Positions 61,914 through 63,678 of a stretch of 64,000 nucleotides of DNA are shown here, piece after piece. Position numbers and translations under genes: made by a program. The stretch is from assembly GCF_044324875.1 (NCBI RefSeq), contig NZ_CP172185.1; one strand, written 5' to 3'. The notes below the pieces were generated by a model. That model was given only the letters and a program-made list of their open reading frames with translations, was not told the DNA's origin and did not search any database. This stretch comes from Escherichia coli. Its GTDB lineage: Bacteria > Pseudomonadota > Gammaproteobacteria > Enterobacterales > Enterobacteriaceae. Within the stretch, counting starts at the first letter, position 1. Each line of letters begins with the position of its first letter.

Positions 61914-61929
61914 TTGTTAGTATTCTAAC
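61914..61929. promoter_or_regulatory. DeoR operator (promoter-proximal site of the deo operon)
   Basis: TGTTAGTATTCTAACA, a 16-bp near-palindrome with TGTTAG/CTAACA half-sites, about 45 bp upstream of the deoC start. Confidence 0.7.
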
Positions 61930-62127
61930 ATCTACTCCGCAACACACTTCGATATACATCACAATTAAGGAAATCTACTTACAAGTTTGCATCACTGTAA
62001 TGCGATCTGGTTCAAATAATTCACTTTCAAATGAATGCGTCAGTGGTGGCAAACGCATCAGGATCAAAGTGAACATCACGAAACTTCTTACAATGGCGCA
62101 TCACCTTCGGCATAAAAGGAAAAGAAG

Positions 62128-63678
62128 ATGCCCACTTCTCATGAGATTGCACTGCAACAACGTTGCCAGCAAATTGTCACCAGTCCGGTACTTAGCCCGG
62201 AGCAGAAGCGCCATTTTCTGGCGCTGGAAGCAGAAAACAATCTGCCTTATCCGCAGCTTCCTGCCGAAGCCCGCCGCGCGCTGGATGAGGGTGTAATCTG
62301 CGATATGTTTGAAGGTCATGCGCCGTACAAACCGCGCTATGTCTTACCCGATTACGCCCGTTTTCTGGCGAACGGTTCCGAATGGCTGGAGCTGGAAGGC
62401 GCGAAAGATCTTGATGATGCACTCTCTCTGCTGACCATTCTTTACCACCACGTACCGTCGGTCACATCGATGCCGGTCTACCTGGGGCAACTGGATGCGT
62501 TGTTGCAACCGTATGTTAGAATTCTAACACAAGACGAGATCGATATTCGAATAAAACGTTTCTGGCGTTACCTCGACAGAACCCTGCCAGACGCCTTTAT
62601 GCACGCCAATATCGGCCCGTCTGATTCGCCCATCACCCGTGCAATCTTACGTGCAGATGCAGAGCTGAAGCAGGTTTCACCGAACCTGACCTTTATCTAC
62701 GATCCTGAAATCACCCCTGATGACCTGCTGCAGGAAGTGGCGAAGAACATCTGTGAATGTAGCAAACCGCACATCGCCAACGGTCCGGTGCATGATAAAA
62801 TTTTCACAAAAGGGGGCTACGGGATTGTGAGCTGTTACAACTCACTGCCGCTGGCGGGTGGTGGCAGCACGCTGGTACGCCTTAACCTGAAAGCCATTGC
62901 CGAGCGCAGCGAATCGCTGGAAGACTTCTTTACGCGCACTCTACCGCACTACTGCCAGCAGCAGATCGCCATCATCGATGCGCGGTGTGAATTCCTCTAT
63001 CAACAATCACACTTCTTTGAGAATAGCTTCCTGGTGAAAGAAGGGCTGATTAACCCTGAACGTTTTGTGCCAATGTTTGGCATGTATGGGCTGGCGGAAG
63101 CGGTTAACTTGCTGTGTGAAAAAGAAGGGATTGCCGCGCGCTACGGTAAAGAGGCCGCCGCAAATGAAGTGGGTTATCGCATCAGCGCGCAACTGGCGGA
63201 GTTTGTCGCCAATACCCCCGTGAAATATGGCTGGCAAAAACGCGCCATGTTGCACGCACAGTCGGGGATCAGTTCTGATATCGGCACCACGCCGGGCGCA
63301 CGCTTGCCGTATGGCGATGAGCCAGATCCGATCACCCATCTGCAAACTGTCGCCCCGCATCATGCTTATTATTATTCCGGCATCAGCGACATTCTGACGC
63401 TCGACGAAACCATCAAACGTAATCCGCAGGCGCTGGTACAGCTTTGCCTCGGTGCCTTTAAAGCCGGAATGCGTGAATTTACCGCCAATGTCAGCGGTAA
63501 CGATCTGGTTCGCGTTACCGGTTATATGGTGCGTTTGTCGGATTTAGAAAAATATCGCGCCGAAGGTTCACGTACCAACACCACCTGGCTGGGCGAAGAG
63601 GCCGCACGCAATACTCGTATTCTGGAACGCCAGCCGCGCGTGATAAGCCATGAACAGCAGATGCGCTTTAGTCAGTAA
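62128..63678 (+). CDS. yjjI: Glycyl-radical-enzyme-like protein YjjI (DUF3029), 516 aa
   Basis: 516-aa ORF divergent from deoC and followed by an activating-enzyme gene. Confidence 0.88.
62514..62529. promoter_or_regulatory. DeoR operator (promoter-distal site), inside the yjjI coding region
   Basis: Perfect 16-bp palindrome TGTTAGAATTCTAACA, exactly 600 bp from the proximal site; the deo operon is known to have two DeoR operators about 600 bp apart that cooperate by DNA looping. Confidence 0.7.

Follow-up and report, generated by a model that had tools for sequence, protein, structure and literature searches.

With a probability of about 95%, we regard the locus described here as the native control region of the Escherichia coli deoCABD operon, and not as a lookalike. 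It lies in a stretch of E. coli DNA of 64,000 nucleotides (the window), and it holds three DeoR operators: O2 at the promoter deoP2, O1 at the promoter deoP1, and a third, weaker operator, OE. Both O1 and OE are located inside the neighbouring divergent gene yjjI. The DeoR operator system is already known and is a textbook case of DNA looping; as the deo operators are one of the founding examples of repression by this mechanism, their rediscovery adds nothing. Two modest additions are made to the textbook system. One is a constraint at the codon level, in that synonymous diversity across yjjI is lowest at O1 and OE, which is new here, and the other is a predicted, convergent yjjI promoter that would be enclosed by the loop. 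The sequences and positions of the sites, their gene context, the start of yjjI and the selection on operator DNA come from our own analysis, while DeoR binding, looping and induction are taken from the literature. The features are collected in Table 1.

Table 1. Coordinates in the window of the deo genes, the operators and the other elements of the control region.
Feature	Position	Strand	Description
deoB	58416-59639	-	Follows deoA
deoA	59691-61013	-	Follows deoC
deoC	61091-61870	-	First gene of deoCABD
deoO2 (O2)	61915-61930	-	DeoR operator at deoP2; deo strand reads TGTTAGAATACTAACA; holds the extended -10 TGtTAGAAT, hexamer 61927-61922
CRP-1 of deoP2	61948-61963		TGTGATGTATATCGAA on the deo strand; centre at -40.5 relative to the inferred P2 start
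CRP-2 of deoP2	62001-62016		TGCGATCTGGTTCAAA; centre at -93.5 relative to the inferred P2 start
yjjI promoter (predicted)	62054-62094	+	FNR-like site CGCATCAGGATCAA (62054-62067) and -10 TACAAT (62089-62094)
yjjI	62128-63678	+	YjjI-family glycyl radical enzyme, 516 aa; hosts O1, deoP1 and OE
deoO1 (O1)	62514-62529	-	DeoR operator at deoP1; perfect palindrome; holds the extended -10, hexamer 62526-62521
A/T-rich stretch	62552-62567	-	CCAGAAACGTTTTATT on the deo strand; yjjI codons 141-146; about -38 to -53 of deoP1
deoOE (OE)	62793-62808		Third, weaker DeoR operator; TGATAAAATTTTCACA, 4 mismatches

The 16-mer at O1 reads TGTTAGAATTCTAACA, and the one at O2, TGTTAGTATTCTAACA, is a copy of it with one mismatch. 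Within the 64 kb window these two sites are the only matches at three mismatches or fewer, against a mean of 0.24 such matches in shuffled sequence, and the number of matches with at most one mismatch expected from base composition is 7.5e-4. The O1/O2 pair is beyond chance. An initial annotation of this DNA had placed two DeoR operators at 61914 and 62514, exactly 600 bp apart. The palindrome at 62514 was found as given, the first site was found one position further on, at 61915, and the computed distance from start to start (62514 - 61915) is 599 bp. That annotation had also overlooked the third operator, which lies 279 bp past O1 and 878 bp from O2; the latter distance we take to be the published one between OE and O2. 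Two other matches with four mismatches are present in the window, which is the chance level, and by sequence alone OE is no better than these. The assignment of OE was therefore based on its position, the literature and its conservation, and not on the match score alone.

The gene context was established from the open reading frames and the RefSeq annotation. The deo genes are found on the minus strand, downstream of the operators, in the order deoC, deoA and deoB, and deoC is identified by a match to the TIGR00126 profile (E = 2.9e-88). On the plus strand yjjI is followed by yjjW, both divergent from deoC-deoA-deoB. Of 5,426 complete E. coli genomes, 5,423 have a match to a 3 kb stretch of this region, with identities of 95-99.6%. 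Compared with the deoCABD region of K-12, the operator sequences, the spacings of 599 and 279 bp, the gene order and the CRP sites of P2 all match; the three operators are identical, and none of the 17 positions that differ among 960 around them falls in an operator. The operators and promoters of deoCABD in K-12 are reportedly those treated by Dandanell & Hammer 1985, Valentin-Hansen et al. 1986, Dandanell et al. 1987 and Amouyal et al. 1989. No difference of substance from the K-12 region was seen; the DNA represents another lineage of E. coli, and a few other genomes match it at 99.6% identity. Positions 61000-64000 are approximately 98% identical to K-12, and the DNA is not that of K-12. 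An identity of at least 99% is reached by only 8 of the 5,423 complete genomes, which points to a sparsely sampled lineage.

The published DeoR palindromes given in PMC5326754 are TGTTAGAA-TTCTAACA and TGTTAGAA-TACTAACA, quoted there from Valentin-Hansen 1986, Dandanell 1987 and Amouyal 1989. The sites on the deo strand, TGTTAGAATACTAACA and TGTTAGAATTCTAACA, are exactly these palindromes. The promoters deoP1 and deoP2 have been described as controlled by DeoR, 599 bp apart and locked by DNA looping (PMC3334521), which is the distance measured here. The geometry that the initial annotation had likened to the classical deo double operator is thus that of the deo locus itself (PMC5326754, PMC3334521). 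A further description gives O1 and O2 at tandem promoters approximately 600 bp apart and the third site, OE, approximately 300 bp further upstream; loops have been seen by electron microscopy, looping at the natural spacing was estimated at approximately 72% in an in vivo assay, and DeoR loops O1 to O2 also in a heterologous reporter (PMC8053113). Up to three sites are thought to be held by DeoR at once (PMC4217526).

Since O1, O2 and OE are each only two mismatches from the CRP core TGTGA-N6-TCACA, and a CRP ChIP-seq peak of ETEC lies inside yjjI, approximately 544 bp from the deoP2 CRP peak (PMC4287617), the sites might be mainly targets of CRP or CytR rather than DeoR operators. We consider this extremely improbable. 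In the literature, exactly these palindromes are attributed to DeoR, and the O1-O2 loop forms in a heterologous reporter (PMC5326754, PMC8053113). Furthermore, MEME put the intragenic CRP peak on a different sequence, CGTACCGTCGGTCACA at 62451-62466, and the peak itself might arise indirectly, through the DeoR loop. The ETEC peak coordinates are approximately 174 bp off the RefSeq H10407 record, and the placement of the intragenic peak in the O1 area (approximately 62500) is imprecise. The separation of the two ETEC peaks is close to the distance between O1 and O2.

As DeoR operators, O1 and O2 both contain TGtTAGAAT, an extended -10 element. With the +1 set seven nucleotides after the -10 hexamer, the inferred start of P2 is at approximately 61915 and that of P1 at approximately 62514, both reading leftward. 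The CRP sites at -40.5 and -93.5 from the inferred P2 start are presumably at the published deoP2 positions. CRP-1 is conserved, and a CytR target sits between the two sites. The mechanism by which CytR and CRP act at deoP2 has been described (PMC3454398), and a CRP ChIP-seq peak in ETEC lies over the exact CRP-1 sequence (PMC4287617).

A consensus promoter scan of 61700-63000 flagged neither P1 nor P2, an outcome to be expected when the -35 is weak and the -10 is of the extended type; the two promoters thus receive no independent support from that scan. The same scan returned one promoter-like site on the plus strand (62774-62801, overlapping OE) and one terminator-like site, and these counts are within chance. 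The A/T-rich stretch upstream of deoP1 is the 16-mer window of lowest nucleotide diversity in yjjI (0.020), and it may serve as an UP-like element or be bound by some other factor. A site for ModE close to deoP1 was reportedly described in 2005. An Rfam scan of 61500-64000 (E <= 1) gave no match, and so no known RNA family in the P1 leader. Two antisense open reading frames in the leader were considered as genes and rejected: one of 54 aa (62344-62508) is intact in 9 of 72 loci and one of 72 aa (62101-62319) in 6 of 54.

From the layout and the published work the following mechanism would apply. Multimeric DeoR would bind three 16-bp palindromes, namely O2 at P2, O1 at P1, which is 599 bp upstream of P2, and OE, another 279 bp away. 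Because the extended -10 of each promoter lies inside its own operator, DeoR bound at O1 or O2 would exclude RNA polymerase. One DeoR complex holding two or three sites would loop the intervening DNA and thereby raise the occupancy at every site, and deoxyribose-5-phosphate would release DeoR. P2 would in addition be activated by CRP and anti-activated by CytR. Since O1 and deoP1 lie inside genuine yjjI, transcripts from deoP1 would run antisense through the 5' end of that gene (codons 129 to 1) and through its promoter before reaching P2 and deoC.

Auxiliary operators inside coding sequence are also known from the lac operator O2 in lacZ and the gal operator OI in galE, which likewise cooperate with a promoter-proximal operator through a loop made by a multimeric repressor. 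These two are, however, located inside a gene of the operon that they regulate and carry no promoter, whereas O1 and OE of deo are inside a neighbouring divergent gene, and O1 overlaps a promoter that is active and directs transcription antisense to yjjI. The DeoR of Bacillus subtilis shares the name, the pathway (deoxyribonucleoside catabolism) and the effector deoxyribose-5-phosphate, but it belongs to another protein family (SorC) and has another operator architecture, and it is not a relevant comparison for these palindromes (PMC11229326).

The position of O1 inside yjjI depends on the start codon of that gene. The initial annotation had put the distal operator approximately 390 bp inside yjjI, in agreement with the 386 nt measured here from the start of the 516-codon reading frame (62128-63678) to the start of O1, and had offered either overlapping antisense transcription or an over-extended yjjI start as the explanation. 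In the second case the true gene would begin downstream of O1, and the operator and deoP1 would be intergenic. Apart from the depth of O1 and deoP1 in the annotated frame, this idea could draw on in-frame methionine codons further downstream, such as M158. The protein itself argues against it. The TIGR04040 profile (YjjI family glycine radical enzyme) is matched completely, positions 1-497 of 497, by residues 11-504 with 789.6 bits, and PF11230 (positions 1-485 of 485) by residues 22-504. Full-length orthologues of 512-521 aa, covering the query fully, are found in Salmonella, Citrobacter, Enterobacter, Kosakonia, Edwardsiella, Proteus, Moellerella and Providencia, and every full-length orthologue is in this range. 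In an alignment of 16 sequences, down to 64% identity, residues 10-130 include dozens of invariant columns and remain conserved as far as Providencia. Ahead of the ATG there is a Shine-Dalgarno-like AAGGAA, and conserved promoter elements are found upstream of the annotated start.

The full profile coverage and the conserved N-terminus thus indicate that the annotated yjjI start is valid and that O1 and OE lie inside genuine coding sequence. The over-extended start was accordingly rejected, its probability being practically negligible, and the antisense overlap is retained. The C-terminal glycyl-radical motif VRVTGYMVR has R462, T464, G465 and Y466 invariant. A sequence search of the PDB with YjjI found no solved relative. 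The gene for the radical-SAM activase, yjjW, overlaps the 3' end of yjjI, and a radical-SAM neighbour is present in distant loci as well. The yjjW gene begins 29 nt before the yjjI stop (63650-63678), and 63653-63668 in this overlap is a synonymous cold spot, as is expected for dual coding with translational coupling. In the 5' part of yjjW, CTGGCTCTGTTTTTGCA at 63719-63735 is the exact motif of the K-12 intragenic sigma-54 ChIP-seq site IS57, which in K-12 shows high enrichment and has no obvious downstream target gene.

Conservation of the operators was assessed across genera. A genome scan with one genome per species gave 80 yjjI loci, and deoC is divergent from yjjI in every locus with enough upstream sequence, except in Proteus cibi. 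In 57 of 81 loci O1, at +386 of yjjI, is a perfect palindrome; 80 of the 81, Hafnia and Edwardsiella among them, have no more than two mismatches. OE is identical in 66 of the 81, and O2 is more variable (1-5 mismatches across loci, and 1-4 within Enterobacteriaceae). The distance between O1 and O2 ranges from 567 to 626 bp with a mode of 601, so that the idea of a conserved spacing or helical phase was discarded.

For the codon analysis, 72 non-redundant Enterobacteriaceae loci, filtered to less than 95% nucleotide identity, were aligned and scored in 511 six-codon windows. The mean pairwise synonymous diversity of yjjI in this set is 0.449. The OE window (codons 222-227) has a value of 0.013, the minimum of the gene (rank 0 of 511), and the O1 window, codons 129-134 (taT GTT AGA ATT CTA ACA), a value of 0.020 (rank 2 of 511); lower values are found only in windows overlapping OE. 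The third-coldest independent window, at 63013-63028 (codons 296-301, FFENSF), has a value of 0.077 against the mean of 0.45 and contains no operator-like sequence.

One reading of these values is that the codons at O1 and OE are conserved through a constraint on yjjI itself, be it on the protein, on translation or on mRNA structure, with the likeness of OE to an operator being incidental. The four mismatches of OE, the two other matches of this kind that arise in the window by chance, and the synonymously cold FFENSF segment, which has no known operator, would be in keeping with this. The conserved bases fall, however, mostly at third-codon positions, and the rare codons AGA131 (in 52 of 72 loci) and CTA133 (in 71 of 72) are retained; these are two of only four such codons in yjjI. 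In loci where R131 is replaced by K, G or I, the DNA still differs from the operator at only one or two positions. Away from deoC the picture differs: in five yjjI orthologues that are not adjacent to deoC (Proteus, Providencia, Moellerella and two metagenome-derived loci) no operator-like 16-mer was present at three mismatches or fewer, and the peptides at the operator positions vary, with VGELT, VANYT and IGQQT as examples. Since the positions also match those of the published O1 and OE (PMC8053113, PMC5326754), a constraint belonging to yjjI is very improbable as the cause.

Selection on operator DNA is the reading that we prefer. The operators appear to lie in protein-variable segments in which the DNA constraint dictates the codons, and we consider the comparative pattern to be independent evolutionary evidence that all three sites function. 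The codons at O1 and OE would be under a double constraint, from the protein and from the operator, with the DNA constraint dominating in this segment. Regulatory DNA can in this way override the choice of codon, and even of amino acid, inside a neighbouring gene.

For yjjI itself a promoter was predicted between the two deo promoters. The gene is listed as directly activated by FNR, with a ChIP peak at 4,615,181 in older K-12 coordinates (PMC3688515); corrected by a coordinate offset of 1,977 bp, which was verified, the peak falls at approximately 62035 in the window. The FNR half-site GGATCAAAG (62061-62069) and the -10 element TACAAT are conserved across 68 loci. These elements suggest a class II FNR promoter with a predicted start near 62101. 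Such a promoter would be enclosed by the loop between O1 and O2; its distance to the P2 start would be 186 bp, and it would face P1 head-on at a distance of 413 bp.

In vitro, LacI held in a loop is a stronger roadblock to transcription than unlooped LacI (PMC5477534). By analogy, DeoR at O1 and OE could impede elongation of yjjI transcripts, and a derepressed P1 could collide with them. It is conceivable, but on present evidence doubtful, that the location of deoP1, O1 and OE in yjjI is a regulatory coupling and not a historical accident. The DeoR loop would then enclose the FNR-dependent yjjI promoter, O1 and OE would act as loop-stabilised roadblocks, a released deoP1 would fire head-on into yjjI, and YjjI/YjjW would be tied to the availability of deoxyribonucleosides. 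If true, this would hint at a role of YjjI in anaerobic nucleoside or deoxyribose metabolism. A literature search, which included papers naming both yjjI and deoC, found no discussion of cross-regulation between DeoR or deoP1 and yjjI. The layout offers a testable route to the regulation, and perhaps the function, of YjjI as an orphan glycyl radical enzyme.

Two of the loci in which yjjI is distant from deoC have nucleoside genes as neighbours, and both are devoid of DeoR-like operators. In Moellerella (L084, 1647-4554) yjjI-yjjW is directly downstream of a nupC-type nucleoside transporter on the same strand, and in an Enterobacteriaceae metagenome-assembled genome (L086, 547-4428) yjjI-yjjW is divergent from deoB-deoD. 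These neighbours are consistent with a link between YjjI and nucleosides.
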